Assembly: GCA_041688155.1 (NCBI GenBank)
Contig: JBDNIW010000001.1
Coordinates: 7,319-71,318 of the forward strand
Reading direction: 5' to 3'
Source: Minisyncoccota bacterium
GTDB lineage: Bacteria; Patescibacteriota; Minisyncoccia; Phycocordibacterales; UBA918
DNA: 64,000 bases
Below the pieces are notes generated by a model. The model did no database searches. It saw nothing but the letters and a program-made list of their open reading frames with translations, and was not told the DNA's origin. Shown piece after piece: positions 2,684 through 26,162 of the stretch. Position numbers and translations under genes: made by a program. Each line of letters begins with the position of its first letter. The first letter of the stretch is position 1.

Positions 2684-3223
2684 CTAGTTAGCACTATCAG
2701 CGCCGGTGTAGACATTAGTGACGTCGTCTTGTTCTTCTAGTTTCTCGATAAACTCAGCTAGTATTTCGCCGGCCTCGTCGTCGAGTTCGACGGGAGTGTT
2801 TGGGGTATAGCCGTCGACTGATTTGGTAAACGCCCAAGTGGCTGAGCCAGGGGCACCTAGTTCAAGCCCTGCTTTAGAAAACACGTGCCGGATTTCTGGT
2901 GCGGTACGGTTGTTGTTGTCAGTGACCGCTTCAATCAGTAGAGGTACCCCTCCTGGGCCATAGCCTTCGTAGAGGACTTCTTCCATCGCACTCCCGCCCT
3001 CGCCTGAACCTTTGGCCAGGGCTCGTTCGATGGCGTCTTTAGGCATTGAGTCTTTTTTAGCCCGGTCAACTGCGGCGATGACGTTAGCTGAGTCAACCCG
3101 CCCACTAGCTTTTTTTACTTCCATCGTAATTAGACGGGAGTGCTTAGAAAACAGCTTGCTCCGCTGCTGGTCAGTCGCGCCTTTTTTATGTTTGATTTTT
3201 GACCACTTATTGTGTCCTGACAT
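2684..3223 (-). CDS. yebC: YebC/PmpR-family probable transcriptional regulator (compact form)
   Basis: MSGHNKWSKIKHKKGATD... and EGYGPGG motifs; the classic yebC-ruvC arrangement. It is shorter (179 aa) than canonical YebC (~240 aa); the middle domain is reduced. Confidence 0.75.
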   Translation of the reverse strand: MSGHNKWSKIKHKKGATDQQRSKLFSKHSRLITMEVKKASGRVDSANVIAAVDRAKKDSMPKDAIERALAKGSGEGGSAMEEVLYEGYGPGGVPLLIEAVTDNNNRTAPEIRHVFSKAGLELGAPGSATWAFTKSVDGYTPNTPVELDDEAGEILAEFIEKLEEQDDVTNVYTGADSAN

Positions 3224-4643: not shown

Positions 4644-6389
4644 TTAGACAATGTGGTTGAGGAACGTGTCGTCTGGAGCACCGGCAGCCGGAGGGTTGGT
4701 TTTGCTAGAAATGGTACTCGAAAGGGTTCTGGGTAGTTCTATCACTCGTTCCAGTTCTGCTATCGAAGTGACACCGTTAAGGACTTTTTCAATACCATCG
4801 TGCAACATAGTCGGGATGCCTTGGGGTTTAGCGGCTTCGAGGATCATGTGTTCACGAGGATCGCGTAGTACGACGGCTTCTACTGCGTCATCCATAACTA
4901 TAGCTTCGTAAATACCACCGCGTCCCTTGAACCCGGTGTTACTACACACCTCGCACCCGGGAGCGGTGTACAGCAAACCTAGCGGAGGGACTGTATCTGG
5001 GTGCGGGTGGTCATGTAATATGGTGGTAATGATTTGTTGTTCCTCAGCAGTTGGGGGATGTCCGACTTTACAGTGGGTACACAAAAGTCTGATTAGTCGC
5101 TGGCCGAGGATTAGGTTCACTGCACTACCAAACATCCGCGCATCGACTCCCAAATCCATCATCCGGACAAACGCCGCCACCGCGCTGTTGGTGTGCATGG
5201 TGGTGAGTACGAGGTGACCAGTCTGAGCGGCGTGCATGGCGGTTTCGGCTACTTCGGCGTCGCGCACCTCACCAATCAGAATAACGTCTGGATCCTGACG
5301 CAGTAGTGCCCTTAAGCCTGAAGAAAACGTGTAGTCACCGTCGACCTGGGTTTGGACAATACCCTCGACTTTGTATTCGACTGGATTTTCAATGGTGATG
5401 ATTTTGATACCTTCGGTGTGAACCTCTTGCAAAAACGCGTACAACGCAGTGGTCTTACCTGACCCAGTTGGACCAGTGGTAATGATGAGTCCGTTTGGTT
5501 TTTTGAGTTCTCGACGGACTACCTCGTTGATGTGTTGGTTGAGGTTGAGTTTATCCATTGCAAAACTCGCTACGGTTGGATCAAGTAAACGCATCACGAT
5601 TGATTCGCCATACGCGCCAGGAATCACCGACGAACGCACTTCGACTTCTTTGTCACCGGTTTCAAAAGTAAACCGCCCGTCTTGTGCTTCGGCGCGGCTG
5701 TTGAGGACCATGCCAGAGAGTAGTTTGAGTCGTGACATCATGCGACCATACATATATGTATCGAGATCTACGATGTCGTGCAGCACTCCATCAAACCGGT
5801 AGCGCAGTCGGATGGCGTTGTTCTCTGGTTCGATGTGGATGTCAGATGCGCGCAGGGCGAGAGCACCCGCAAAAATCAACTCCATCGTGGCAGATATCCG
5901 ATAGCTGCTGTTGGCGGTATTGATCTCTTTGAGAATTAGTGCGATGTCGGATTCTTTTTGAATGCGCTTAGTTAGTTCAAGGATGTCACTGGCGCTAATT
6001 TCAAAAATGCCTTTTCTCGACACTGTGGTGTTGGTTAGGTCAGCGTATCGCTCCCAAGCGTGGGTGAGGCTTGCAGATGAAGTCATAAACACCCGAAGCG
6101 TATAGCCGTTTTTTTGTAGAGTCTCTAGAGCAGCTTTGGTTTTTATGTTAGTGGGATTTTTGATTGCGACTGACAGCGTCCGCTGGAGCAATTCAAACCC
6201 AGTTAGTTCAGCCTCGCGGGCGAGAGTCTCGTCGATAGCGGCGATAGCTTCGGGGTTGATGGTGTAGCCGTGCAAATCAATGTGCTCATAGCCGTATTGC
6301 GGTGCGAGGTTTGCAACCGTCCGCTCCTCTTCTTTGTCTCGCAAATCGTTGAGGCGGGCATTAAGGGCTGTGTCATCAAATTGAACCAT
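4644..6389 (-). CDS. pilB: type IV pilus assembly ATPase PilB/GspE family
   Basis: Walker A GPTGSGKTT, Asp/His boxes, and a C-terminal CxxC...CxxC zinc motif. The start is moved to the internal Met (MVQFDD...) at 6389, because the longest ORF start (6494) would overlap divergent tsaE by 68 bp. Confidence 0.82.
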   Translation of the reverse strand: MVQFDDTALNARLNDLRDKEEERTVANLAPQYGYEHIDLHGYTINPEAIAAIDETLAREAELTGFELLQRTLSVAIKNPTNIKTKAALETLQKNGYTLRVFMTSSASLTHAWERYADLTNTTVSRKGIFEISASDILELTKRIQKESDIALILKEINTANSSYRISATMELIFAGALALRASDIHIEPENNAIRLRYRFDGVLHDIVDLDTYMYGRMMSRLKLLSGMVLNSRAEAQDGRFTFETGDKEVEVRSSVIPGAYGESIVMRLLDPTVASFAMDKLNLNQHINEVVRRELKKPNGLIITTGPTGSGKTTALYAFLQEVHTEGIKIITIENPVEYKVEGIVQTQVDGDYTFSSGLRALLRQDPDVILIGEVRDAEVAETAMHAAQTGHLVLTTMHTNSAVAAFVRMMDLGVDARMFGSAVNLILGQRLIRLLCTHCKVGHPPTAEEQQIITTILHDHPHPDTVPPLGLLYTAPGCEVCSNTGFKGRGGIYEAIVMDDAVEAVVLRDPREHMILEAAKPQGIPTMLHDGIEKVLNGVTSIAELERVIELPRTLSSTISSKTNPPAAGAPDDTFLNHIV

Positions 6390-11303: not shown

Positions 11304-12012
11304 TATAGTTAATCGTATGAAGAGACTCGCGCAAAAATTATTTACTGATCAACCAGGAAAAACTCATCACTTGGTGAACGATTTTTTTGCGCTGCTGACG
11401 ATTGTATCGATTGTGTCGTTGGTACTTGAAACGGTACCAGGGCTAGTAGCGTACGAGCGGACCTTTTTCATCATTGAGTGGGTCGCGGTGTCGTTCTTTA
11501 CCATCGAATACATCGGCCGGACGCTGGCCTCGAAACCAGTCTGGCGCTACCCAACCAGTTTCTTTGGGTACATTGACCTGATATCTATCCTGCCTACTTT
11601 TTTAGGGTTAGGAAACTTTACCTGGCTCAAGTCGGCCCGGGCGTTGCGAATCATCAGACTACTGCGGATGCTCCGGTTAGCAAAAGTTTTGCGTACTGGG
11701 GTGAGTGAAGACAGCATGGGCGTGTTGTCTTTAAACGTACTGATTTATTTTGTCGTACTGACGTTTGCGTTGTTGGTAACAGGCACTGCGATGTATTTGG
11801 TCGAGCCAACCACAGCCGCGTTTGTGAGTATTCCCGCTGGGATGTGGTGGTCGCTGAAAGTGTTCATGGCCGGGATTCCGGTGGTCGAGCCGGTGACGCA
11901 ACTGGGAGAATTTTTCTTCGTACTGACGCGGTTTGTGGGGTTGATGTTGTTGGGGTTGCTGATTGGAGTGGTGGGGAATGTGTTTCGGGGGTTGTTGGGA
12001 GGGAGGGGGTAA
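11293..12012 (+). CDS. ion-transport (voltage-sensor-containing) channel family protein
   Basis: S4-like segment RALRIIRLLRMLRLAKVLR with regularly spaced Arg, multiple TM helices and a pore-like region; 239 aa. Confidence 0.55.
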   Translation: MGDDIVNRMKRLAQKLFTDQPGKTHHLVNDFFALLTIVSIVSLVLETVPGLVAYERTFFIIEWVAVSFFTIEYIGRTLASKPVWRYPTSFFGYIDLISILPTFLGLGNFTWLKSARALRIIRLLRMLRLAKVLRTGVSEDSMGVLSLNVLIYFVVLTFALLVTGTAMYLVEPTTAAFVSIPAGMWWSLKVFMAGIPVVEPVTQLGEFFFVLTRFVGLMLLGLLIGVVGNVFRGLLGGRG

Positions 12013-12124
12013 TTACAGCCATTAACTCGTTATGCTGTTAGGTGCAGCGCTAGTGGTTCCAGATCGCTAACTATAATTCTGCACTTCGCGTAGATTCTAG
12101 AAAGCCTTCGGGGCTATCAACTTT

Positions 12125-12457
12125 CCTTCAAGGGGTCTCGGTCCTTACAGGACCAGTATACCTTTTGGATATATTTTCCTTTCAGGCAAATCTATCGCAA
12201 AAGCTTTTCGAGCCCTAAACGAAAGTCTCCCAGACTTTCGATTCAGGCGCACAAACAAAAAATCCCCACAGGGATTTTTTTGTTGTACGCCTTCAAGGGG
12301 TCTCTCTCGTTACACGAGCAGTATCCACCCTGGACGGTTTGTTCACATTCGCTCCAAACCGCCTCAGTGCGGCTTCGAGCCCTCCGTAAAGTCCCCCGGA
12401 CTTTACTTGAAGGCGCACAAACAAAAAATCCTCATAGGGATTCTTTTGTTGTGCGCC
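12125..12457. repeat. two tandem ~165-bp units downstream (in tRNA sense) of tRNA-Lys, each ending in a tRNA-3'-end mimic plus terminator-like hairpin
   Basis: Unit 1 is 12125..12289 and unit 2 is 12290..12457. Both start (plus strand) with ccttcaagggg, the reverse complement of the tRNA-Lys acceptor/T-stem 3' end. Both contain gcgcacaaacaaaaaatcc-N4-ggatt...gttgt.cgc hairpins and cgagccct..gtaaagtc..gacttt hairpins. Confidence 0.7.
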
Positions 12458-12524
12458 TTCAAGGGCTCGAACCTTGGACCATCTCCTTAAAAGGGAGCCG
12501 CTCTACCATCTGAGCTAAAGGCGC
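12452..12524 (-). tRNA. tRNA-Lys (anticodon TTT)
   Basis: Hand-folded cloverleaf: acceptor GCGCCTT/AAGGCGC, D-arm GCTCAGATGGTAGAGC, anticodon loop CTTTTAA, T-arm CAAGGTTCGAGCCCTTG. CCA is not encoded. Confidence 0.85.
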
Positions 12525-12617
12525 ATATTTTGTTATTACTGTAAAAGTGGCAAAACTATAACATTTTGCACTCAAAAATCAAACGATTTCTGTCATCAGT
12601 CTGATACGCTACTAGCA

Positions 12618-13085
12618 ATGAAATATATCATCCTTGAAAATATCCGCAGCGCCTACAACGTCGGGGCTATTTTCCGGACTGCTGATGGAGCTGGGGTGAG
12701 CAAAATATACTTGGTTGGGTATACTCCTAGCCCGATTGATCGGTTTGGTCGAGTACAGCCCGAGATTCTTAAAACGTCATTGGGAGCGAGTGCAGAGATC
12801 GAGTGGGAACACGTATCTATCAGCAAAGAGCTGATTATTCGACTACAGTCAGCTGGATGCGATGTAGTTGCGGTAGAGCAAGACCCGCGCTCAATCACAA
12901 TCGTTGATTTTGTTGCTCCAGCACACGTGGCGTACATCATGGGTAATGAAGTGGTGGGGGTGGAATCAGACACACTGCAGTTGTGCGACACAATCATTGA
13001 TCTCCCGATGCATGGACACAAAGAATCGCTGAATGTTTCGGTCGCTGCTGGTATAGTTATGTATCATGACGTCCTTTATAGGTAA
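12618..13085 (+). CDS. SpoU/TrmH-family RNA 2'-O-methyltransferase (TrmL-like size)
   Basis: IRSAYNVGAIFRTADGAGV... SPOUT motifs; 155 aa. Confidence 0.7.
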   Translation: MKYIILENIRSAYNVGAIFRTADGAGVSKIYLVGYTPSPIDRFGRVQPEILKTSLGASAEIEWEHVSISKELIIRLQSAGCDVVAVEQDPRSITIVDFVAPAHVAYIMGNEVVGVESDTLQLCDTIIDLPMHGHKESLNVSVAAGIVMYHDVLYR

Positions 13086-14568
13086 TTGGTTAGTGCAGTG
13101 GTTCTTTGCCGGCTTACTGCTTGGAGCTGGGTTTGTGTGGCCGGTGTTTTGGTGGTTGGGATTAGTTGGGGTTACGCGTTTGATTTATTTGGCGATACAT
13201 GAGCCATCATGGCGCCGGGTGTTGATCGGGTCGCTACTGGCGTGGACCAGTAAGTCAGCCTTGTCTTTGTCGTGGTTTTGGAGCGTGTTTCCGATTGCCT
13301 GGCTGACGGTTGGTTCTGATTGGTTGCAATTACTATTGATTTTGGTGTGGTGGCTGACGGCCGCACTGTGGCTGGGTGCGGGCGGAGTGATGTTTGGCTC
13401 GGCAGTCAAGTTGCTACAGTTGTACGTACCAGCGGCCTGGTTGTATGCCGGTTTACCACTCTTGTGGCTGGCAGCTGAGTTGTTTGGGTCGTTAGTTTTT
13501 TCTATAGTAACTATTGGGTCTGGCGGGTCTGTTACAACTGCGTTTAGTTTTGGGTACATTGGGTATTTACTGGTTGGGCACGACTGGTTGGTGCAGGTTG
13601 CGCAATGGGGTGGAGTATACGCGTTAGGGTTACTTTTGGTATCACTTAGTTCATTGACCATTTGGCTCATTGTAAAGCGGCAAGTAGCTATAAGGTACGT
13701 CGCACTGAGTCTTGGATTATTGGTCTGCACCAGTTTAATTCCCTGGCCACATAATGAACTCACCGGTCAAACCAATACACATACAGTTGTGATTATCGAC
13801 ACAACTTTTACTCCTCAGGATTTAGCCGACGCTGACAGTGCCGCTATGCGTCAAGCAGCTCAAGAAGCAGCGATGCAGGCTGCGTTGGTTCTTGAACCCG
13901 ACTACGTGTTACTTCCCGAAGATGCACGATATTTTAACCAAGTTCAAGCGCCCAGATTGACCCAAGCACAATTCAAATTTAGAACAAACAATCCAGAAGT
14001 AGTGATAGTCGATAGTGGGCGAGTGACAGTGGATGAGCGGGTTGTTTTGCAGTCTTTTGTTTATAATGGTGCGAGTCACACTGTCAATCAGTCACAAAAA
14101 CGCTATTTAGTGCCACAGGGAGAATTTATGCCTTCACTTTATGAAGCTGGACTCAAACTGTTTGGGCACAGTGAAGTGATTGATGCTATTGCAGATACAC
14201 TTGACTACACCGTCGGGACTGACACTAGTCAAGCTGATTTCGCCAGTAGTTCACCGGGGGTATTATTTTGTTTTGAAAGTGTGTCACCGTGGGGAGTGCG
14301 TGCAATTATGCAAGAGCGAGGGAATGTACCGTTTATTGCCCACCCGATTTCGCACGCCTGGTTTAATGAACCACACATATTGTGGCAACAGTTGGACAGC
14401 ATGTTGCGAGTACAAGCAATCTGGAATCAGCAGTACATTGTGAGTGCCGGAAACCATGTGCGGGGATATGCTGTGACTCCAGCTGGCACAATCGTGTATC
14501 CGCAGTCGGTAGCCAGTGGTGATAATTGGCACGTCGGTGTTCTCACCGTACCCAAGGTAGATCGTTAG
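13066..14568 (+). CDS. lnt: apolipoprotein N-acyltransferase-like (Lnt) membrane protein
   Basis: W-rich polytopic N-terminal domain followed by a CN-hydrolase-like domain. LLPEDA resembles the Lnt WPESA region, QKRYLVPQGEFMP resembles K..HLVPFGE.VP, and a CFE cysteine resembles the CYE catalytic Cys. Confidence 0.5.
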   Translation: MTSFIGNWLVQWFFAGLLLGAGFVWPVFWWLGLVGVTRLIYLAIHEPSWRRVLIGSLLAWTSKSALSLSWFWSVFPIAWLTVGSDWLQLLLILVWWLTAALWLGAGGVMFGSAVKLLQLYVPAAWLYAGLPLLWLAAELFGSLVFSIVTIGSGGSVTTAFSFGYIGYLLVGHDWLVQVAQWGGVYALGLLLVSLSSLTIWLIVKRQVAIRYVALSLGLLVCTSLIPWPHNELTGQTNTHTVVIIDTTFTPQDLADADSAAMRQAAQEAAMQAALVLEPDYVLLPEDARYFNQVQAPRLTQAQFKFRTNNPEVVIVDSGRVTVDERVVLQSFVYNGASHTVNQSQKRYLVPQGEFMPSLYEAGLKLFGHSEVIDAIADTLDYTVGTDTSQADFASSSPGVLFCFESVSPWGVRAIMQERGNVPFIAHPISHAWFNEPHILWQQLDSMLRVQAIWNQQYIVSAGNHVRGYAVTPAGTIVYPQSVASGDNWHVGVLTVPKVDR

Positions 14569-15569
14569 GGTGTAGTGTAATAAAAACCGTACATGCCAGC
14601 CGCGTCTTTTACTGGCGCGTCAAAAGGATTTAGATACGTGGATTGAATGGTGATTGTACTTAGTGCAGGAACCGTAATTGGCGTCAACGAGAGCGGAATA
14701 TTCCAGCCGGACGGGTTGACTGCTGGCTCAGCAATAAATTGCTCAACGGGTGCATTGTCTAATAGCACAGTGACGTCCTGACCGCCTTTCTGGGGCCAGA
14801 AATTAGCTCCACCAAGAACGATGGTGGTAGAGGAGGTGAATTGGTAGCTGGCACTCGGTTCGTTATTTTCAGCCGTCTTTATAAAATTTGTTTCCACCGA
14901 ACTAGTCGGCACAACGAACGCTTGATGCGGTAGAGGTGGTGTACAAGGACTGTCATCGAGTCGCAAACGAATAAAATCAACTGCTGTGGTATGACTATCA
15001 TCAGTCATGAGTGTCACTACTAGAGTTGGTTCTAACGTGCTGTTGGCAGTGTGTGCACCATGCGGCTCGGCTTGGGGATGAGCCATAAATTCGACGATGA
15101 GTTGTTCGCCAGTGGCGAGAGGAATGCCGTAGGGAGCGGGTAATTTAGTTGGTTCTAGGGTGTGGCGAGACGCTGAGTATATCTCGTGCGCACCTCCGTC
15201 TTTCATAAAATGCCAGGGACAAATGGCCGGAATCCGGCCGACCACACTGACTGATACGTGATGCAAAATCGAACTATCAGCCCCTTCCATAGTCACTTCA
15301 AACCCAGTCACAACAGTGTCTTTCTCTACAGTAATAAGTGGTGAATAAAACCAGTGACTGTTAGGCCCGTCTGGTGTTTCTGGTCCGTCGTTAGTTGGGA
15401 TCATTTTGTGGGTAGCCGGCACCCGAATTGTGATAGCGGTGTCTGAGTGGGTGGGGTTGGTTGGAGTTGCGATTGCAACTCTGGGAGACGTTTGTATCAA
15501 CCCGTAGGCAGTAACTGTTACTGCAATGAGGAATCCGAACAAAATGAGTACTACAATGTTTCGTTTCAT
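14565..15569 (-). CDS. hypothetical secreted/membrane-anchored protein
   Basis: N-terminal hydrophobic segment MKRNIVVLILFGFLIAVTVTAYG; no recognisable domain; 334 aa. Confidence 0.45.
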   Translation of the reverse strand: MKRNIVVLILFGFLIAVTVTAYGLIQTSPRVAIATPTNPTHSDTAITIRVPATHKMIPTNDGPETPDGPNSHWFYSPLITVEKDTVVTGFEVTMEGADSSILHHVSVSVVGRIPAICPWHFMKDGGAHEIYSASRHTLEPTKLPAPYGIPLATGEQLIVEFMAHPQAEPHGAHTANSTLEPTLVVTLMTDDSHTTAVDFIRLRLDDSPCTPPLPHQAFVVPTSSVETNFIKTAENNEPSASYQFTSSTTIVLGGANFWPQKGGQDVTVLLDNAPVEQFIAEPAVNPSGWNIPLSLTPITVPALSTITIQSTYLNPFDAPVKDAAGMYGFYYTTP

Positions 15570-15591
15570 GGGTTTACTGTATCTTGCTTAA

Positions 15592-16857
15592 TTAGTTCAA
15601 TAACTCTTGAACCGTTGCAGCGTCGCTCCAAGTTTGTTTGGTTCCTTGTGGCCCCATGATGTAAGGATCAGTGCCTTTACCGCTAACCAAAACGTAGCCG
15701 CCGTCTGGACAATCAGCTATCGCGGTTTGGATTGCGGTCCGACGATCCATGATGATTCTGACTGCTGCTTCGGGACTCATGCCGTTTTTCATCGCTTGCA
15801 CGATGGCTAGAGGGTTCTCATCGTAGGGGTCTTCGTTGGTGAGGATAATCTGATCGCAGTATTCCTCGGCGATTACGCCCATCTCGGGTCGCTTCCAGGT
15901 GTCGCGTCCACCACCGGTGTTACCCAGTACTCCAATAATATATTTACCCGCAAATGCCTGGTAGAGCTGCGTGAGTGAGTCTGGGGTGTGGGCGTAGTCA
16001 ACCACCACGGTGATTTTCTTGGGAGCATCAGCTGGTGAGTGAAACTGCTCAACTCGGCCGGCTACTGGTGGCAATTTGGACAAACTCTCGCGGATTGATT
16101 CGAGCGGTACGCCGATAGACCGCGCGTAGGTAATCGCAGCGAGGGTATTGTAGACATTAAACACGCCGACGATGGGCACGCGGATGGTGACGTTATCGAT
16201 AACCATTGTGACGGAGTCTTTTTGTAGAGAGTGCAGTGTGAGGTTGTTGAGACGATAGGGCAGTAGACGCTCCACTTCGTAATTAAGGAAATCCTGCCCG
16301 TGTTGATCGTCGACGTTAGAGACCAAGGTTCGAGGTCGTTTGGTGCTGTTTGCCACGGCGGCCGCCAGCTGCAGTTTGGCGGCTTTGTAGTTGGCAAACG
16401 AACCGTGTGATTCGATATGCTCTGGGGTCAGGTTGGTAAACAGGAGCGCGTCAATCTCAACAAATTTATGCCGAAACTGCTTGGCCCCCTCCGAGGTCAT
16501 CTCAACCACCGCGTGGGTGCAACCAGCGTCGACCGCTTTGCGCAAAAACCGCTGGATAAAAAACATCCCCGGCATGGTCATTTTGAATAAATTGCGTTCG
16601 CGCTCGTCCCCGTAGGTAAACTGAATGGTCGAGAGGGAGGCCGTCTGGTATCCGGCTCCCCGCAAAATTTGCGCGAGGATCTCAGTGGTGGTTGATTTAC
16701 CTTTGGTGCCGGTGATGCCGATAACGGTAATCTCTCGGGATGGGTGTTTAAATTTAATTGCTCCTATATACGCTAGCGCGTAGTGATAAGCCGGTTGAAT
16801 TGCCTTGAATACGCGTTTTGGAATAAATCTTTTTACAGTTTGGCGAAAGTTTTGCAT
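15592..16857 (-). CDS. murE: Mur ligase, MurE-like (UDP-MurNAc-tripeptide synthetase) lacking the canonical N-terminal domain
   Basis: GITGTKGKST P-loop, GVFNVYNTLAA, VVVDYAHTPDSL, GGGRD..KRP and NEDPYDENP motifs match the MurE central and C-terminal domains. At 421 aa it lacks the UDP-binding N-terminal domain. Confidence 0.65.
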   Translation of the reverse strand: MQNFRQTVKRFIPKRVFKAIQPAYHYALAYIGAIKFKHPSREITVIGITGTKGKSTTTEILAQILRGAGYQTASLSTIQFTYGDERERNLFKMTMPGMFFIQRFLRKAVDAGCTHAVVEMTSEGAKQFRHKFVEIDALLFTNLTPEHIESHGSFANYKAAKLQLAAAVANSTKRPRTLVSNVDDQHGQDFLNYEVERLLPYRLNNLTLHSLQKDSVTMVIDNVTIRVPIVGVFNVYNTLAAITYARSIGVPLESIRESLSKLPPVAGRVEQFHSPADAPKKITVVVDYAHTPDSLTQLYQAFAGKYIIGVLGNTGGGRDTWKRPEMGVIAEEYCDQIILTNEDPYDENPLAIVQAMKNGMSPEAAVRIIMDRRTAIQTAIADCPDGGYVLVSGKGTDPYIMGPQGTKQTWSDAATVQELLN

Positions 16858-16863
16858 AGCTAG

Positions 16864-17436
16864 TTATGGTAATTTTTGTAAGGCTTTGGTGATAATGTCA
16901 TTGACTGAGTTTTCGTCCGTGTTGAGTGATTGCACTGTCGCCCGCGCAGACGCGGCATCGTATCCAAGGGCCACCAGGGCATCAATCGCATCGGTTTGTT
17001 TGGCGTCAAGTGGACTCGATGGGGTGACGTGTTCGGCCAATTCACCGAGTTTCTCATGTAGATGGTTCACCACGTTTTCGCAGGTTTTCTTGCCGATGCC
17101 AGACAACTTTTGGAGTTGGGCTGGTTCCTTGTTGGCAATCTGCTCAATCAACAGAGTAGGGCTAGCTTGGCACATGATGGCTAGGGCGGATTTGGGGCCG
17201 ACTTTAGGCACACTCAGTAGCAACTCGAACAATCGCCGCTCGACACTAGTAGTAAACCCGTATAGATCGAGCGCGGTTTCCCGCACTGCCAGGTACGTAT
17301 GCATCATCGCCTCGGCCCCCTGAGTGTGAATCGTAGTGTGGGTTGGGGTATATATCAAGTACCCAACACCATTGACGTTGAGGATCAGGGCATTGTCTTC
17401 TATGTGGGTAATGGTCCCGGTCAGCTGGCGTATCAT
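16864..17436 (-). CDS. ruvA: Holliday junction DNA helicase RuvA
   Basis: MIRQLTGTITHIEDNALILNVNGVGYLIYTP OB-fold N-terminus and helix-hairpin-helix motifs; 190 aa. Confidence 0.85.
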   Translation of the reverse strand: MIRQLTGTITHIEDNALILNVNGVGYLIYTPTHTTIHTQGAEAMMHTYLAVRETALDLYGFTTSVERRLFELLLSVPKVGPKSALAIMCQASPTLLIEQIANKEPAQLQKLSGIGKKTCENVVNHLHEKLGELAEHVTPSSPLDAKQTDAIDALVALGYDAASARATVQSLNTDENSVNDIITKALQKLP

Positions 17437-17525
17437 GCACCTATTATACTAGATGTGGCCATTTGGAAACCCCTTGCCTTTTAGATATCAATACGGTACA
17501 GTACGCCCACTTTAGAGAAATATAT

Positions 17526-17792
17526 ATGCCAATCACTACCGGAGCCAAAAAAGCCTTACGAGCCTCAGAACGCAAAAAAGTGTTCAATATTCGTCGTAAG
17601 TCAACCATGAAAGACGTCACCAAAGCGGTCGACAAAGCCGTCCTAGCAGGAGACACCAAAGCGGCTGAAGCGCTGCTACCCGCAGCCTACAAAGCCATCG
17701 ACAAAGCCGCCAAGCGAGGGGTAATCAAGGAAAACACCGCCGCCCGAAAGAAGTCACGACTGACCGCGAGGATTGTCAAGGCGAAGGCCTAA
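17526..17792 (+). CDS. rpsT: 30S ribosomal protein S20
   Basis: MPITTGAKKALRASERKKVFNIRRKS... is typical of S20. The start is moved to the internal Met at 17526; the ORF-track start at 17463 is too long. Confidence 0.85.
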   Translation: MPITTGAKKALRASERKKVFNIRRKSTMKDVTKAVDKAVLAGDTKAAEALLPAAYKAIDKAAKRGVIKENTAARKKSRLTARIVKAKA

Positions 17793-17810
17793 CTAGTTAC
17801 GCAGCGAGTA

Positions 17811-17845
17811 ACAACAAAACCGACCCACTGGGTCGGTTTTGTTGT
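17811..17845 (+). terminator. rho-independent terminator after rpsT
   Basis: acaacaaaaccgaccc-actg-ggtcggttttgttgt hairpin. Confidence 0.6.
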
Positions 17846-18048
17846 TACTCTGACTTCTGACGAAGTCCGTTTGTGCGCAGGGAGAGGGATTCGGTCAGAA
17901 ACAAATTTCTTTGCAATTTTTCATGATACTGACTCGCTTAGTCGTACTCGCCTACGCTCCGTGCGACATTACTGCGTCTCCCGAATCCCTTACCCTCCCG
18001 CACGAAATACGACAAAACCTAAAGACACGCTTTAGGTTTTGATATTTG

Positions 18049-18133
18049 CGGAGAGAGAGGGATTCGAACCCTCGGTACCTTGCGGTACGCTGGTTTTCAA
18101 AACCAGTGCAATCGACCACTCTGCCATCTCTCC
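18049..18133 (-). tRNA. tRNA-Ser (anticodon TGA), class II with a long variable arm
   Basis: Acceptor GGAGAGA/TCTCTCC, anticodon stem CTGGT/ACCAG with loop TTTGAAA, long variable arm, T-arm AGGGTTCGAATCCCT. CCA is not encoded. Confidence 0.8.
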
Positions 18134-18196
18134 GAGTGTTTGTCAAGTTTAGGTGTGTTTTACCTCAGCTTGGTAGGTGATATCATACCAGAAATA

Positions 18197-18646
18197 TTAT
18201 TTTTTCATATAGTGTTCGCTGGTATGGCAATTTGGACATAATAACTCTAGATTATTTAAATTATTATTATCCCGGTTACGATCGATATGATGCACTTGCA
18301 GTATTTCGTATACATTATATTGGCAACGCTGACATAGGCTGCCTCGTTCTTTCATTAATCTCTTTTTTAGGATTCGACTAGTCACCACTTTATCTTTTGA
18401 CGGTCTGCGAGTTTTATATTTTATTCCAATACGACTTTTGTTAGCGCAGCTACGACTACAGGTCTGTTTATTGGCACCTGACAACATCGGTGTTTTGCAT
18501 ACTAAACAAGGTATTTCTTGCCGACACGAAATGCCGTAACAGGCTTGGCTACAGTAGGCTTTGCCATTGTTCTGTATCAGAACTCCTGGTCGGCGATAGA
18601 TTGGTGTCTGACATATAATACAAGTTGTGTTTGGATTACGTTCCAT
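18197..18646 (-). CDS. HNH endonuclease with an N-terminal Cys-rich zinc-ribbon region
   Basis: HNH motif QVHHIDRNRDNNNLNNLELLCPNCH plus several CxxC pairs. The gene is clearly more AT-rich than its neighbours. Confidence 0.75.
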   Translation of the reverse strand: MERNPNTTCIICQTPIYRRPGVLIQNNGKAYCSQACYGISCRQEIPCLVCKTPMLSGANKQTCSRSCANKSRIGIKYKTRRPSKDKVVTSRILKKRLMKERGSLCQRCQYNVYEILQVHHIDRNRDNNNLNNLELLCPNCHTSEHYMKK

Positions 18647-18739
18647 TTCATAACTATACCACTAATCCAGTAGACCAGCATACACAGAAACGCAATCTAG
18701 CTCGTTCGTCACTAATTTGTTCATGCTACAATTCTAGTA

Positions 18740-19210
18740 ATGGAACCAGCACTTCGCTCTATAACTTGGGAAGCGCCCCAGCACCATCATGTCGAGAAAG
18801 GGAACGACTGGTTTTTTGCGTTGACGATTGTCATTATTGCGCTCGTGGTGGTGGCTGTGTTGTTTGACAACGTATTGTTTGCGCTGTTGATTGGGCTGTC
18901 TGGGGGAGCACTGGCGGTCTCAGCTGCCAAACGCCCAATGATCATCCCCTACGCCATCACCGTTCGGGGGATCCGGATTGAAGATCGTCTGTATCCGTTT
19001 TCTACGCTCGATTCGTACCACATCGATGAAGAAGATCCCCGTGGTCCGCAACTGCTGGTCAAATCTGAAAAAAAGCTGATGCCGCTGATTGTCATGCCGA
19101 TCCCGGCAGAACATATCGACGAGATTGAAGACATTCTCAAAGAACGATTAGTAGAAGAAGAACTTATCGAGCCATTTTTTGTTAAAGTCCTAGAGTTGTT
19201 TGGGTTGTAA
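18740..19210 (+). CDS. hypothetical membrane protein (two TM helices)
   Basis: 156-aa ORF with a hydrophobic core ALTIVIIALVVVAVLFDNVLFALLIGLSGGALAV; no domain recognised. Confidence 0.4.
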   Translation: MEPALRSITWEAPQHHHVEKGNDWFFALTIVIIALVVVAVLFDNVLFALLIGLSGGALAVSAAKRPMIIPYAITVRGIRIEDRLYPFSTLDSYHIDEEDPRGPQLLVKSEKKLMPLIVMPIPAEHIDEIEDILKERLVEEELIEPFFVKVLELFGL

Positions 19211-19297
19211 ATCAAATAGGGCCAGTGTCGACTAGTGCGTATTACAATGTAGAGGTTTGGTAATATATCTTTTTATGCTATATTCTTTGCCGTAAAG

Positions 19298-19369
19298 GCT
19301 CCCATAGTTTAACGGATAAAACACCGGTTTGCGGAATCGGAACTCCAGGTTCGATTCCTGGTGGGAGCA
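19298..19369 (+). tRNA. tRNA with anticodon GCG (Arg) by hand fold
   Basis: Acceptor GCTCCCA/TGGGAGC, D-arm GTTT..AAAC, anticodon stem CCGGT/ATCGG with loop TTGCGGA, T-arm CCAGGTTCGATTCCTGG. The GCG anticodon is unusual for bacteria, so the isotype call is tentative. Confidence 0.6.
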
Positions 19370-19370
19370 C

Positions 19371-19417
19371 GAGTACAAAAAAGAGCACACGCTAGTGTGC
19401 CTTTTTTGTTCGTACTC
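19371..19417 (+). terminator. rho-independent terminator after the tRNA
   Basis: gagtacaaaaaagagcacac-gcta-gtgtgccttttttgttcgtactc extended palindrome with a T-run. Confidence 0.65.
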
Positions 19418-19595
19418 CCAAGAAAGCGGAGCTTTCGCCCAGGAATCCAAGAGATGGAATATAGCGCACGCAGCGAAGCGAGTACGATATGACATCTGTA
19501 CCGTTCATGTAATGAAAGATAGCCTAGTGGGAGTACAGGCAAGGATTTCAGCTGAATTCGCGCCGCTTTTGTACCCATGCTAAACTAGCTACACT

Positions 19596-20351
19596 ATGCG
19601 TATACTTGGGATTGATTTTGGGACTAAAAAAGTGGGGTTGGCGTTAACCGATGAGTCAGGATCGATGGCGTTTCCTCACAGTGTCATCCCAAACGACGCG
19701 GTGTTGCTTTCGACGGTCGTTGACCTGATTGCCGAGCAGCAGGTCACAGCAATCGTTATGGGGCACTCGCTTAATCTCGATGGTACTCCCAACGCGGTAC
19801 AGGCCCACATTGAAATGTTTATCGCTGACCTGACTGTACGGGTACCAATTCCGATTCATCTGGAGCCAGAGCAGCTCACCAGTAGGCAGGCCGCGACTAC
19901 AACTGGCCGTAATACGCAAACTGACGCAGCTGCTGCCGCTTTGATACTAGAAAGTTATCTCGCTAAACAAAAAAATATGCCCGTGCAATTAGCACTAGAC
20001 GAAGCGGTGGTGAAGATATCAAATGAAATCTCGTTTGAGCAATTCTCTGCGGTAGAAATTAGACTGGGGACGATCATAGCCGTAGAAATAGTCGAAGCTG
20101 CGGACAAACTCCTCAAACTGACAGTTGACCTGGGTGAACCTGAACCGCGGCAAATCGTGTCAGGCATCCGCGAGTACTACCCAGATGCACAAGTGTTGGT
20201 CGGGCTGCAGTGTCCGTTTATTGCCAACCTAGCACCGCGCCAGATCAAAGGCTTTGTCAGTCAGGGTATGATCCTCGCTGGTGCAGTTGACGACACGTTT
20301 GCGTTACTCAACCCATCGACACACCTGCCAGCTGGTACTCGTCTCTATTAA
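19596..20351 (+). CDS. ruvX: fusion protein: RuvX/YqgF (pre-16S rRNA nuclease / Holliday-junction-resolvase-like) with a C-terminal tRNA-binding OB domain (CsaA/Trbp111/Myf-like)
   Basis: N-terminal MRILGIDFGTKKVGLA, GHSLNLDGT and DAAAAALILESY match RuvX motifs. The C-terminal IRLGTIIAVEIVEAADKLLKLTVDLGEPEPRQIVSGIREYY...GFVSQGMILA matches the tRNA_bind (EMAP/CsaA) domain. 251 aa. Confidence 0.7.
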   Translation: MRILGIDFGTKKVGLALTDESGSMAFPHSVIPNDAVLLSTVVDLIAEQQVTAIVMGHSLNLDGTPNAVQAHIEMFIADLTVRVPIPIHLEPEQLTSRQAATTTGRNTQTDAAAAALILESYLAKQKNMPVQLALDEAVVKISNEISFEQFSAVEIRLGTIIAVEIVEAADKLLKLTVDLGEPEPRQIVSGIREYYPDAQVLVGLQCPFIANLAPRQIKGFVSQGMILAGAVDDTFALLNPSTHLPAGTRLY

Positions 20352-22644: not shown

Positions 22645-23171
22645 TCAGCCAAAAAACAAAACGTGTCGCGGTGTTGTCTGGAGTGGTTTTTGTAGGGATG
22701 TGTGTCTTTGTCGCTTTTGCAGTCCGCATGATTATGCTGGAATCAGTAGTTTTGTCAGAACAGGTCGCCGCCATTGCGGTCGACCAATCCCAGCAAGTGG
22801 CGTTCACTCGCCTAGAGAAACTAGTGCAAGCAACAGCGGGTGAGCGGTCTGAGCTTCGATCATTTTTCTTAGAGTCTCAGTCAGATAGTATTGATTTTTT
22901 GAACTATATTGAACAGCTTGCAACCGAACGTGGAGTTGCGCTTGAGACAACTAATCCAAAAGAGATTGAGGTCGAAGGTAAAACCTTCCTCTCGGTAGAG
23001 TATTCACTGGAGGGTAGTCTAGGTCAAGTTGAAGGATTTATTCAGTTGCTGGAAAATATCCCGTACGTATCACAACTGACAGCGGTACAGCTTAGGCGCG
23101 GGTCAAGTTTGGTGTGGCAGGCTGATATTATCATTGACGTAGCTGTTTTAACTTATGAACCAATCCTCTAA
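22641..23171 (+). CDS. pilO: type IV pilus assembly protein PilO
   Basis: N-terminal TM helix, coiled-coil region; 176 aa; operon position. Confidence 0.55.
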   Translation: MISQKTKRVAVLSGVVFVGMCVFVAFAVRMIMLESVVLSEQVAAIAVDQSQQVAFTRLEKLVQATAGERSELRSFFLESQSDSIDFLNYIEQLATERGVALETTNPKEIEVEGKTFLSVEYSLEGSLGQVEGFIQLLENIPYVSQLTAVQLRRGSSLVWQADIIIDVAVLTYEPIL

Positions 23172-23616
23172 ACAACTCAAAGCGATGGCACATAGGCTAT
23201 TTACAGCCCGGCCCGGAGTAGCACTAGTCAAAACGCTACACCCCAAACGAGACTGGATGGTTGGGCTGCTGGTAGGTATTTGCATCGCAACCACTATTGT
23301 TGGTTGGAGCAGGTACACGTACGTAGTAAATCGTGACGGTGGTACAACAAACCAAGAAATAGAGATTGCCAACCCAACCTATAAGGCAGTATTGGTTGAC
23401 CAAGCTCTGACAATTTTTCAAACCCGAGCAGCTAATTTTGTAAACACTGATCTACCAACGGTAGCTCCTATTGAGGCACCAATGGTTGAGCTGGAAACTG
23501 GGACTTCTTCTGCCATTACACCGGTCGATACGCAAAACCAAGAGCTGCAGATAGAAACAGTTGAGTCGCCAGTAGAGCAAGAGCAGATTTCAGAAACTCC
23601 AACGCTAAGTTGGTAG
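23155..23616 (+). CDS. hypothetical pilus-operon protein (PilP-like position) with a TM helix
   Basis: Overlaps the end of pilO; TM segment VGLLVGICIATTIVGW; 153 aa. Confidence 0.4.
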   Translation: MNQSSKQLKAMAHRLFTARPGVALVKTLHPKRDWMVGLLVGICIATTIVGWSRYTYVVNRDGGTTNQEIEIANPTYKAVLVDQALTIFQTRAANFVNTDLPTVAPIEAPMVELETGTSSAITPVDTQNQELQIETVESPVEQEQISETPTLSW

Positions 23617-23619
23617 TTG

Positions 23620-24035
23620 GTGTCCCCACTAGGAGTCGGTCACCTTCACAGCAATAGTTTGTTCGACTGGTGGTCTCTAAACTATTGTGCTACGCGACCC
23701 CGCCGCTCGTAACGTCCTCCCTGCGGTCCGGGCGATGTACTCGCTCTTTTCGACTCCTAGCCGAAAGCGTTGCTTTCTTGGAGACACGAACAAAAATGGC
23801 ACACTCACGTGTGCCATTTTTGTACTCGTGTCCCCACTAGGAGTCGGTCACCTGCGCAGCAATAGTTTGTTCGACCGGTGGTCTCCAACCTATTGTGCTA
23901 CGCGACCCCGCCGCTCGTAACGTCCTCCCTGTGGTCCGGGCGATAAACTCGCTCTTTTCGACTCCTAGCCGAAAGCGCTGCTTTCTTGGAGGCACGAACA
24001 AAAATGGCACACTCACGTGTGCCATTTTTGTACTC
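23620..24035. repeat. two tandem ~208-bp non-coding units (E1 23620..23827, E2 23828..24035) downstream of tRNA-Arg(TCT)
   Basis: Each unit begins (plus strand) with cgtgtccccactaggagtcg, the reverse complement of the tRNA-Arg T-loop half plus the acceptor 3' strand. It then carries a conserved ~125-nt core and ends with a terminator hairpin gaacaaaaatggcacac-tcac-gtgtgccatttttgtactcg. The units are ~92% identical. Confidence 0.85.
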
Positions 24036-24107
24036 GTGTCCCCACTAGGAGTCGAACCCAGATCAAAAGGATAGAAGCCTCTCGTTTTATCCATTAAACT
24101 ATAGGGA
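24036..24107 (-). tRNA. tRNA-Arg (anticodon TCT)
   Basis: Acceptor GTCCCTA/TGGGGAC, D-arm GTTT..AAAC, anticodon stem AGAGG/CCTTT with loop CTTCTAT, T-arm CTGGGTTCGACTCCTAG. Confidence 0.8.
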
Positions 24108-24460
24108 CAAATAACGGTAGCGTTATTTGTACTGAGTACAATACCAGAAATTAAGCAGAGAGAAAGCAGAAGAAGCGCGCTCTGATACAAGTATCAATAT
24201 GAGCGCGCTTTAGGGGCGTTTTCTCAGTTGGTTAAAACATAGCCCAATCAGTGAAAACGACAGTGTCTGGTTCTGGTGGCAGCGGTGGGTCTGCTGGATC
24301 CGGGACGGAACTTGGAGCTGCGGGTTGCTCTACCTCGACTGCGGGTGGTTTTGGCTGTTCCATAACAGCGCTCCTGTGCTTGGCGCTACGTTGTACGTAG
24401 CATACTCGTAAAATACGTTTGCAGACGCACCTCGTCAATTGAGTTATAAACAGTTGATTA

Positions 24461-25138
24461 TTATTTGGTCGGGTCGGTAATTGGAATCAGGATTTCATTC
24501 CGCCTAGTCAGTGGCATTGAGAGTGGGGGATTGTATTGCGCTACCTGGGCTGGGGCGCTGATGATGTAGCCGTCAGTGGTAATAAGTTCTTCGAGTAGAG
24601 CTTTTTTTGCCTCAACGCGACTCTCTGTTGCATACCAAGTAAACCTCAGCGCAGCGACCGTTGTAGCCGACACTTCTCGCAGGGTGACTTGTGGATTATT
24701 TGGAGTTGGGAGGGTATCTAGAGTATATTTTGACGGTAAGACAAACGACACGTTCCGGTTCAGCGACTCTCCAACCGTGGTTGCAACCGGCACGGTCATG
24801 GCGATCTTTTCGGATGTTGTTTCAAGAACAGGGGCAGTCATTGAAATACTGGTTTTGCTCGTATTGTTCCCAAAAATATAATCAGCGATTAATCTAAACC
24901 CACCACCAAGTGCCTCTTGATACGTACCAGTGATTTCGGTTTCGGCCACGATGTACGAATCGTACTGGCGGATCTCGTAGCCCACCCGTCGCTCCAGCAC
25001 AGTGTACGAGGGCTCTTCTATATTCCTAATAGCAAGGTAGCTGCCAATGGTCCACAGGGCAAGCGCAGCGAGTAGTCCAAATGCGAGGTAGTACATGTCA
25101 GTAGTGTACGCCTGTGCAACCCAAAAGAAAACCCGCAA
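24461..25138 (-). CDS. SOUL/HBP-family heme-binding protein, membrane-anchored
   Basis: YEIRQYDSYIVAETEI...GGFRLIADYIFGNN...MTAPV...FVLP pattern typical of the SOUL heme-binding family; N-terminal TM helix. Confidence 0.55.
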   Translation of the reverse strand: MRVFFWVAQAYTTDMYYLAFGLLAALALWTIGSYLAIRNIEEPSYTVLERRVGYEIRQYDSYIVAETEITGTYQEALGGGFRLIADYIFGNNTSKTSISMTAPVLETTSEKIAMTVPVATTVGESLNRNVSFVLPSKYTLDTLPTPNNPQVTLREVSATTVAALRFTWYATESRVEAKKALLEELITTDGYIISAPAQVAQYNPPLSMPLTRRNEILIPITDPTK

Positions 25139-25151
25139 GCGGGTTTATTCT

Positions 25152-25300
25152 GTGCGCGCAAAGAGACTCGGCCACCTTCGCATCAATTCTTTGTTCGACC
25201 GACGGTCTCCAAACTATTGTGCTACTCGACCCCGCCGCTCGCAGACGTCCTCCCTGCGGTCCGGGCGATATACTCGCTCTTTTCGAGTCTCTACGGAAGT
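25152..25300. repeat. element E3: tRNA-Val-3'-end mimic plus the conserved ~125-nt core (same family as E1/E2)
   Basis: Starts gtgcgcgcaaagagactcgg (compare the tRNA-Val acceptor 3' strand and T-stem). The core ggccaccttcgcatcaat...gtcctccctgcggtccgggcgatatactcgctcttttcgag is about 85% identical to the E1/E2 cores. Confidence 0.8.
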
Positions 25301-25527
25301 AAAACAATGCTCATCTGAATTCGGAGTACCTCGTGGTCACGAATCGCAAACTATAATCCTGGATTTTATGCAGATTCTAGAAAGCGTTCTCGACCCCGAC
25401 TCGACTGTTTTCTCCCTTGGAAAGGGGAGAAAGACATGTCTCCGTCTCGCACCAAGGCACAGGACTGAAACTTTTCAGTCCCTAAAACCAAACACGTCTC
25501 ACATGAGACGTGTTTTGTTTTACCTTG

Positions 25528-25747
25528 GTGCGCGCTCTGAGACCCGGTCACCTTCGCATCAATATTTCGTTCGACCTACGGTCTCCAAACTATTGTGCTA
25601 CGCGACCCCGACACTCGAATCGTCCTCCCTGCGGTCCGGGCGATATACTCGCTCTTTTCGAGTCTCTACGGAAGTAACTTTGGTTACTTCCTCAGCGCGC
25701 ACGAATAAAAATTGCCCACACTGCGTGTGGGCTAATTTTTATACTCG
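25528..25747. repeat. element E4: tRNA-Val-3'-end mimic plus conserved core plus terminator hairpin, directly abutting tRNA-Val
   Basis: gtgcgcgctctgagacccgg, then the core, then the hairpin cgaataaaaattgcccacac-tgcg-tgtgggctaatttttatactcg. Confidence 0.8.
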
Positions 25748-25820
25748 TGCGCGCTGAGAGACTCGAACTCCCGACATCTTCAGTGTAAATGAAGCGCTCT
25801 ACCAACTGAGCTAAGCGCGC
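25748..25820 (-). tRNA. tRNA-Val (anticodon TAC)
   Basis: Acceptor GCGCGCT/AGCGCGC, D-arm AGCTCAGTTGGTAGAGC, anticodon stem CTTCA/TGAAG with loop TTTACAC, T-arm TCGGGAGTTCGAGTCTCTCA. Confidence 0.85.
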
Positions 25821-26162
25821 GAATTAGGTTGGATGCAAATACTGCTCGTGAGCGGATATTTGTAGGCACTATCGTACCTAATTTTGGAGAAAAGACAAGC
25901 GGCCTACCTTTTGAGGGTAGGCCGCAGAGCGGTCATTTCATCGCTTGACCGCTTGTGGTGGTTGACGTCGACACACACCAACATTCCTGTCCTTGACGGT
26001 TTTCCCCCGCTTGGGTTTTGGTTGCTCTTCACGCACTGCAGCAGCTTGCTTTTTTGCTGCTCTATCGGCGTCGTCTGGAGTCCAGTCTTTAGGCATACGC
26101 GTATCGCTCCTCTGTTTGTACTAAGTTACTATTTGTCTCTTTATAATTCGTTTTGCAAAAAA

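Follow-up and report, generated by a model that had tools for sequence, protein, structure and literature searches.

Behind two tRNA genes of a Minisyncoccota bacterium, tRNA-Arg(TCT) and tRNA-Val(TAC), a conserved core is repeated four times, and each copy ends in a piece of the neighbouring tRNA. Are these units the relics of elements that integrate into tRNA 3′ ends, or are they small RNA genes with tRNA-like ends? We addressed this question in a 64-kb stretch of contig JBDNIW010000001.1 (64,000 nucleotides, the window), for which a sequence-only reading had offered both explanations. The results show that the units are a real, selected and structured family, wider than first described, and of a kind already known from E. 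coli, namely the RtT repeats of the tyrT locus.

Layout of the units in the window

A repeat search reproduced the positions of the four copies (23620, 23828, 25152 and 25528; units E1 to E4), all of them on the minus strand, which is the sense of both tRNA genes. The 23-mer GTCCTCCCTGCGGTCCGGGCGAT occurs four times in the window as against zero expected. By BLAST, E2 is 94.7% identical to E1, 88.0% to E3 and 87.5% to E4, and E1 and E2 together form an exact 208-nucleotide (nt) tandem unit at 95% identity. Each copy ends, as had been described, in the last ~19 nt of the adjacent tRNA (19/19 in E1 and E2, 17/19 in E3, 16/19 in E4), and the first ten bases of this tRNA-end copy pair with an inverted copy ~125 nt upstream. 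The inverted repeats said to bracket the ~125-nt core were also found, CTAGGAGTCG/CGACTCCTAG at the Arg locus and GAGACTCG/CGRGTCTC at the Val locus. The helix that closes the core consists of an inverted and a direct copy of the T-loop/T-stem 3′ side of the neighbouring tRNA, and is followed by the acceptor 3′ strand.

The unit extends beyond the core and its ends. If T denotes the T-loop 3′ half with the T-stem 3′ strand, and A the acceptor 3′ strand with the discriminator and one further base, the order in the tRNA sense is T+A, CGAGTAC, a hairpin preceded by an A-run and followed by a T-run, GTTCGTG, A′, a small hairpin h, T′, the core, and again T+A. Here T′ is the complement of T, and A′ is a copy of the 5′ acceptor strand of the tRNA, carried together with hairpin h by most units: for tRNA-Val the copy, GCGCGCU, is exact, and for tRNA-Arg it reads GUCUCCA against GUCCCUA in the tRNA. 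The two arrays comprise the following features:

24036..24108, minus strand: tRNA-Arg(TCT), anchor of the E2-E1 array (ARAGORN; Rfam tRNA model, 62.4 bits)
23828..24035, minus strand: unit E2, type-1 core (model score 161.7 bits), in the order CGAGTAC, terminator hairpin, GTTCGTG, acceptor-5′ mimic, small hairpin, 5′ strand of the closing helix P1, core, P1 3′ strand with the acceptor 3′ strand
23620..23827, minus strand: unit E1, type-1 core (model score 162.6 bits)
23792-23821, minus strand: E1 terminator
23780-23787, minus strand: E1 acceptor-5′ mimic
23764-23778, minus strand: E1 hairpin h
23751-23760, minus strand: E1 P1 5′ strand
23714-23736, minus strand: E1 invariant motif
23620-23638, minus strand: E1 P1 3′ strand and tail
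25747..25820, minus strand: tRNA-Val(TAC), anchor of the E4-E3 array (ARAGORN, Rfam tRNA model)
25528..25746, minus strand: unit E4, type-1 core in a Val frame (163.8 bits), with a G.U pair in P1
25152..25527, minus strand: unit E3, type-1 core in a Val frame (154.8 bits), including a 228-nt left part with a hairpin (25483-25522) and a 60-nt motif (25330-25389)

The statement that the same kind of terminator follows every copy holds for E2 alone; E4 and E3 are followed by other hairpins, and E1, which abuts the 3′ end of a convergent open reading frame (ORF; 23155-23616), by none. Indels of 1 and 2 nt and compensatory substitutions between the copies confirmed that the units are non-coding and led us to reject protein coding; the ORFs crossing them are merely mechanical. 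An assembly artefact, the doubt raised at the outset, is ruled out by independent contigs that hold the same units (L076, L060 and L048; homologous sequences are cited by such labels throughout).

Four more units with other cores had been overlooked, which brings the total to eight units behind five of the seven tRNA genes in the window. All eight lie downstream of their tRNA gene on the same strand; no unit was seen behind tRNA-Leu(GAG) or tRNA-His, the other two tRNAs inspected. The additional units are:

19371..19536, plus strand: unit E5, with a shorter, type-2 core in the same frame, behind tRNA-Arg(GCG) (19298-19370); its orthologue is L058:2211-2375
17873..18047, minus strand: unit E6, type-3 core, behind tRNA-Ser(TGA) (18048-18133); 19.8 bits, E 0.013
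12285..12450, minus strand: unit E7, behind tRNA-Lys(TTT) (12451-12524); its core retains the tip motif of helix H3
12126..12284, minus strand: unit E8, the second tandem unit behind tRNA-Lys, with a truncated tail

The tRNA-end copy matches at 17/19 positions in E6 and 16/19 in E7, and partially in E5 and E8. Sub-motifs are common to cores of different types: CGCACGnAGCGnAGgCGAGTACGA is present in the Arg(GCG) and Ser cores, and the L058 orthologue of the Arg(GCG) unit retains TATATCGCCC...AAGGACGAT.

A covarying fold of the tRNA-sense strand

A covariance model had been proposed as a check for conserved structure. We built such a model (R1) from 14 distinct units with a hand-set structure, and 25 hits were realigned to it. 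In this model-fitted alignment 90.7% of the cells pair, compared to 81.5% in shuffles, and both-sided pair changes number 18 versus 8.0; none of the 500 shuffles reached the observed value on any of five measures. When the partners were slid, pairing fell to 32-44%. Four of the five measures are borne out by an unfitted MAFFT alignment, with 89.7% versus 82.5% pairing and a covariation score of 0.234 versus 0.127, the exception being further pair types, which are not above shuffles there (346/500). Single helices tell the same story. Inspected by eye, H3 occurs in three fully compensated versions, GCACAAUAGUUUG/CAAACUAUUGCUGC, GCUUAGUAUCUUUG/CAAAGUACUUAGC and CAGUAUUUAU/AUAAAUACUG; hairpin h covaries between GAAAGC/GCUUUC and GAAACC/GGUUUC, and the type-2 hairpin between UCCAU/AUGGA and UUCAU/AUGAA.

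The wobble pairs reveal the strand. A G.U at position 70/124, at the base of helix P3, is found in 12 of the 14 sequences, and a U.G in helix H1 in four of them; both work on the tRNA-sense strand only. Where an A has become G in P1 or P3 of E4 and E3, a wobble pair is kept, and changes in H1 and P1 are tolerated solely as tRNA-sense wobbles. Together, the covarying fold and the sense-strand wobbles point to a folded sense-strand molecule, most simply an RNA. In minimum-energy folds of whole units the 5′ acceptor copy pairs with the 3′ tail in E1, E2, E4, E5, E6 and E7. There A′ is paired with A, hairpin h is formed and the core is closed by T′/T, such that the unit takes the shape of a Y with tRNA-like ends.

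Within the core, the motif CCCGGACCGCAGGGAGGACG (one position free) is exact in all type-1 copies, and the columns flanking it are likewise invariant; its constancy is partly a matter of selection of the sequences, because the same motif was used to find the type-1 copies. No convincing pairing was found for it. Helices CCGC/GCGG and CCCG/CGGG in the motif region were considered, found unsupported by variants, and kept unpaired. Compared between the window and L021, L046 and L059, the units are 84-92% identical and the adjacent coding DNA 63-71%. The better conservation of the units than of neighbouring coding sequence shows that they are under purifying selection.

The design of the units is that of the E. 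coli RtT RNAs

No described family with this architecture had been known to the sequence-only reading. Such a family exists: RtT (Rfam RF00391), the 178-bp repeats of tyrT, has the same architecture. At the E. coli tyrT-tyrV locus (NC_000913.3 1286200-1287800, our L079) Rfam finds four RtT units at 133-137 bits. In the RtT consensus the closing helix GGGGAAGGAU/AUCCUUCCCC is followed by an unpaired tail, CACCACCA, which is the 3′ end of tRNA-Tyr; the 5′ strand of this helix is an inverted copy of the tRNA-Tyr T-stem/acceptor segment. By megablast, RtT was detected in 4726 of 5426 E. coli genomes, in 1-9 places each, and was absent from ~700. Each 178-bp repeat reportedly carries the last 19 nt of tRNA-Tyr, and RtT has so far been treated as an enterobacterial oddity of a single operon. 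According to two sources, one repeat unit of tyrT encodes the small RNA rttR (PMC3318445, citing Bosl and Kersten 1991; bioRxiv 10.1101/2024.07.17.603846), which the second of them links to processing of the tyrT transcript and possibly to the stringent response.

The units of the window and RtT have much in common. Both follow tRNA genes immediately and in the tRNA's own sense, frequently as tandem copies, with a copy number that varies among strains or relatives. Both end in ~19 nt of a tRNA 3′ end; a branched core of ~100 nt is closed by pairing of the first ~10 nt with an inverted copy upstream, and the remainder forms a 3′ tail. In contrast to RtT, the units of the window are separated from the tRNA by an intrinsic terminator, usually add an acceptor-5′ mimic and a small hairpin, have no tpr-like ORF, and occur with several core types behind at least five different tRNAs within 64 kb. 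The host differs as well, being an uncultured lineage with a low guanine-plus-cytosine (GC) content whose closest genome match is a metagenome-assembled genome (MAG) labelled Candidatus Pacebacteria. Rfam has no family for the units: nothing covered them at gathering scores across the whole window or at E ≤ 10 in 23500-25900 and 11900-19700. On sequence criteria, they fall outside RF00391 and constitute a second, unrelated-looking instance of the RtT design.

The RtT design, a tRNA 3′ end in inverted and direct copies around a structured core, is now found in a very distant uncultured lineage with small genomes. This suggests a general bacterial way to append RNAs to tRNA genes, or selfish units that do so, either recurrent or ancient. 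It offers a second, independent system in which the role of such RNAs and the origin of their tRNA-matched ends can be studied. For annotation it means that repeated tRNA 3′ ends in these genomes are not automatically scars of an integrase.

Homologous units in relatives

A scan of species-representative genomes yielded one true homologue, L021, from the Candidatus Pacebacteria MAG mentioned above; a metagenome scan found the type-1 core in 17 low-GC contigs. Do the copies always sit at tRNA 3′ ends? Wherever the contig permits a judgement, the unit lies directly behind a tRNA of the same sense. Homologues were located downstream of a same-strand tRNA in L042, L046, L055, L060, L068, L075 and L076. 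The tRNAs concerned are Val(TAC), Arg(TCT), Pro(TGG) and Gly(TCC), and P1 and the tail match each of them. The type-1 core motif was absent from a motif scan of IMG/VR, and the hits of a second pattern (L040, L041) proved to be unrelated sequence; a phage origin was therefore rejected.

Gain, loss and exchange of units

Comparison with relatives revealed sites without units. In L046 tRNA-Arg(TCT) is followed by CCAACTAG, and in the window the same flank, CCAACTAC, resumes after the last array repeat. The empty site (L046:10690-10696) has a CCA after the tRNA, and the window unit is inserted after the first C (24036); the tRNA-Arg(TCT) gene of the window no longer encodes CCA, which is carried by the last array repeat instead. 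At the Ser locus, tRNA-Ser of L058 is followed by AAACGGACTTCG / AAACGGACTTCGTCAGAAGTCAGAG, and the window has the same flank after the E6 tail. The contig L076 matches the window at 99.5% identity over 2.6 kb, yet each of the two loci holds one unit there and two in the window; E3 is wholly absent from L076. Gain or loss of units is always bounded by the repeated tRNA end.

The units are also mosaics. In its frame and hairpin h the Arg(TCT) unit resembles that of Arg(GCG) and not that of Val; in its core it resembles Val and not Arg(GCG). This disagreement indicates that cores have been exchanged between tRNA loci. Moreover, the tail in L058 equals the tRNA at a point where A′ expects another base, as if the tail had been converted by the tRNA.

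Proposed nature of the units: RtT-type RNAs appended to tRNA genes

We favour the explanation that the units are RtT-type RNAs appended to tRNA genes and excised through their tRNA-like ends, in arrays remodelled by recombination, and we give this a probability of roughly one half. The reading as tRNA-like small RNAs, one of the two offered at the outset, fits best, given the covarying fold, the strand indicated by the G.U pairs, the acceptor-like stem and the RtT architecture. From these observations we infer how the units may be transcribed and processed and what role they may have in the cell. A unit would be read in the tRNA sense, probably by read-through from the tRNA promoter. Its RNA would fold into a Y, with P1, made of the inverted and direct copies of the T-loop 3′ half and T-stem 3′ strand, closing a branched core of 75-125 nt, and in most units the 5′ acceptor-strand copy and the 3′ end could form an acceptor-like stem. 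RNase P at the 5′ end, and trimming with CCA addition at the 3′ end, would be expected to release a stable RNA of ~150-175 nt. The invariant, unpaired, purine-rich CCCGGACCGCAGGGAGGACG and a GA-rich internal loop might serve as its working surface. Recombination and gene conversion, both at the repeated tRNA ends and from unit to unit, would make the arrays expand or contract and exchange their cores.

Several observations weigh against this explanation. The main weakness is the canonical hairpin-plus-T-run terminator that stands between the tRNA and each unit; a scan of the units for sigma-70-like promoters found none, and transcription therefore needs either read-through or an unrecognised promoter. 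Nor does the explanation say why the frame must match the neighbouring tRNA and not just any tRNA. In Pro-type and L051-type copies and in E3 the acceptor-like 5′ strand is either missing or weak. Only in architecture do the units resemble RtT: its covariance model has no match in the whole window at its gathering score of 45 bits, the cut-off for membership, nor at E ≤ 10 in the two regions given above, and R1 has no match in the E. coli RtT locus. Finally, presence or absence bounded by a direct repeat also fits site-specific insertion.

Alternative explanations

That last point leads to the strongest alternative, which we consider unlikely: the units would be miniature non-autonomous integrative elements that enter tRNA 3′ ends and are moved by a recombinase encoded elsewhere. 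The inverted and direct target copies would make up the attachment site, which might work as folded single-stranded DNA like the attP of CTX phage or the attC of integrons, and the structured core would be an accessory site or a passenger RNA gene. This corresponds to the other half of the sequence-only reading, integration relics or miniature elements. What stands of it is the presence or absence exactly at the direct repeat and the tandem stacking beside the tRNA; what is missing is a linked integrase. The direct repeats, taken there as the footprint of integration, leave the matching inverted copies unexplained when considered alone.

The comparison of empty and occupied sites suits such elements, since in L046 and L058 the flank resumes exactly after the repeated tRNA end, and so do the 1+1 versus 2+2 units of the nearly identical L076. 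CGAGTAY, the terminator, RTTCGTG and the core are homologous across different tRNAs, and the target-derived segments alone differ. Copy-number change and core mosaicism are, however, also produced by homologous recombination, as for RtT in E. coli; units of 160-210 bp are very small for recombination of a double-stranded circle; the IMG/VR motif scan was empty; and the conserved G.U pair and the GA-rich internal loop suggest an RNA.

Recombinases were sought in particular. A recombinase with a matching attP had been suggested as something to look for, and no recombinase linked to the units was seen: there is no integrase among the 20 window ORFs scanned, and no recombinase in the cargo next to the units of L056 or L061. 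In favour of such elements, the tRNA 3′ ends in these genomes do take islands. In L021 a large serine recombinase, the only recombinase seen, of 545 amino acids (L021:1161-2798, minus strand), whose 3′ end overlaps tRNA-Val, belongs to a ~6-kb island (1172 to about 7150) that lies between tRNA-Val and the unit and also carries a methyltransferase. This recombinase has no tblastn match in the window. The L021 unit retains its own left part, with a decayed tRNA end beside it, and the island therefore arrived later; its junction is between the tRNA and a unit that was already resident. For the same reasons, a junction at the tRNA 3′ end and a unit that keeps its left part, the idea that the unit is an end of this island was rejected.

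Known integrative and satellite elements of tRNA 3′ ends resemble the units in having an insert bounded by a direct repeat from T-loop to discriminator, tandem copies, and empty sites in relatives. The units differ from them in their size of 160-210 bp, the inverted target copies and the RNA-like covarying fold, with no recombinase found. As for CTX phage attP and integron attC, the likeness lies in inverted target copies ~100 nt apart, which can fold into a duplex mimicking the target, and in arrays beside a fixed site; unlike these, the units have no signature sequences of the Xer or IntI type, and their branched core is strongly conserved in sequence. The geometry of a folded single-stranded attachment site fits the whole-unit folds, but the conserved G.U pair and the RNA-like loops argue for RNA instead.

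Considerably less probable is a bolder reading, in which the units are a new small mobile element with a target written in nucleic acid or, in a related form, RNA sponges, each specific for its neighbouring tRNA and kept inactive by its own tail. In such an element antisense and sense copies of the last ~19 nt of one tRNA gene would surround a conserved structured core. With the folded element, as RNA or single-stranded DNA, a recombinase supplied in trans or an enzyme of the host would find and enter the 3′ end of that tRNA, and exchange of the frame would redirect one and the same core to another tRNA (Val, Arg, Pro, Gly).

It is improbable that the units lack a function and arose as by-products when replication switched template or folded back at T-arm and terminator palindromes, with the direct, inverted, direct pattern of tRNA ends as a replication scar. 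In the left half of each unit a single long palindrome does run from the tRNA end through CGAGTAC and the stem to the terminator loop at its centre, and on through the stem and GTTCGTG to the inverted tRNA end; tRNA-Leu has the terminator palindrome alone, which resembles a first step. Against a scar speak the units' far better conservation than that of neighbouring genes, the 20-nt search motif exact in all copies with its invariant flanking columns, and compensatory changes in core helices that are not arms of the palindrome.

Least probable of all, decayed tRNA pseudogenes from tandem tRNA duplication with an insertion in the T-loop would account for the 5′ acceptor-strand copies, for a T-stem 3′ strand paired to an upstream complement that differs from the tRNA's own T-stem 5′ strand, and for units ending in the acceptor 3′ strand and discriminator, but not for the absence of D and anticodon arms, for ARAGORN and the Rfam tRNA model calling only the seven true tRNAs, for a P1 5′ strand that is the perfect complement of the T-loop 3′ half and not the tRNA's own T-stem 5′ strand, or for the same conserved core in frames from different tRNAs and the selection on the units. 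We disfavour scars and pseudogenes alike because they leave conservation and covariation unexplained.

Miniature inverted-repeat transposable elements were rejected, since each locus has inverted repeats of its own, identical to the tRNA end found there, instead of a pair common to all copies. Among RNAs with tRNA-like ends, transfer-messenger RNA (tmRNA) shares with the units the pairing of 5′ and 3′ ends in an acceptor-like stem around a large insertion; in the units, by contrast, the insertion replaces the T-loop so that no intact T-loop is left, there is no tag ORF, and the ends copy the neighbouring tRNA. ARAGORN called no tmRNA in the window.

Other observations

The 60-nt motif of the E3 left part, GCTTTCTAGAATCT...AGAATTATAGTT.GCGAT...ACCAC, is present twice in the window on the minus strand, after the Lys array (12050-12109) and in the E4-E3 spacer (25330-25389), with 45/60 positions identical. 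It resembles the junction GTGCAGAATTACTACAC of an inversion in L056. There a ~2.3-kb segment beside the unit stands in opposite orientations in contigs with 99.9% identity elsewhere (L056, L059, L065, L058). The segment contains cyclodipeptide-synthase-like and DUF218 genes, and 313-nt inverted repeats form its borders (L056 671-982 / 2862-3174). A second repeat pair of 231 nt (L056 3156-3386 / 6022-6252) flanks a gene for a 771-amino-acid DKNYY-domain protein; no recombinase was seen with the inverted L056 segment or its repeats.

The 20-22-nt type-1 motif CGCCCGGACCGCAGGGAGGACG is also part of repeats scattered in other phyla, where it frequently occupies the loop of a hairpin. It was found in the Bacteroidetes MAGs OH_CBrB_165/290 and OH_CBlB_34 (L002-L039) and in high-GC contigs (L043-L053, L057, L066, L077). 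The unit model gives these repeats 8-21 bits only, and the recurrence may be due either to chance or to a shared module. Chance matches are expected in high-GC sequence, and some of the motif hits are Shine-Dalgarno regions. The Bacteroidetes repeats match Flavo-1 weakly (29.4 bits for L032 versus a 42-bit cut-off). In L052 (about 1350-1480) and L063 a small kdpF-like ORF is preceded by the motif in two tandem copies, the second of which supplies the Shine-Dalgarno sequence of the ORF. In L061, a LOOT RNA (RF03000, 70.5 bits) is located at 5886-6014 on the minus strand, ~4 kb upstream of the unit.

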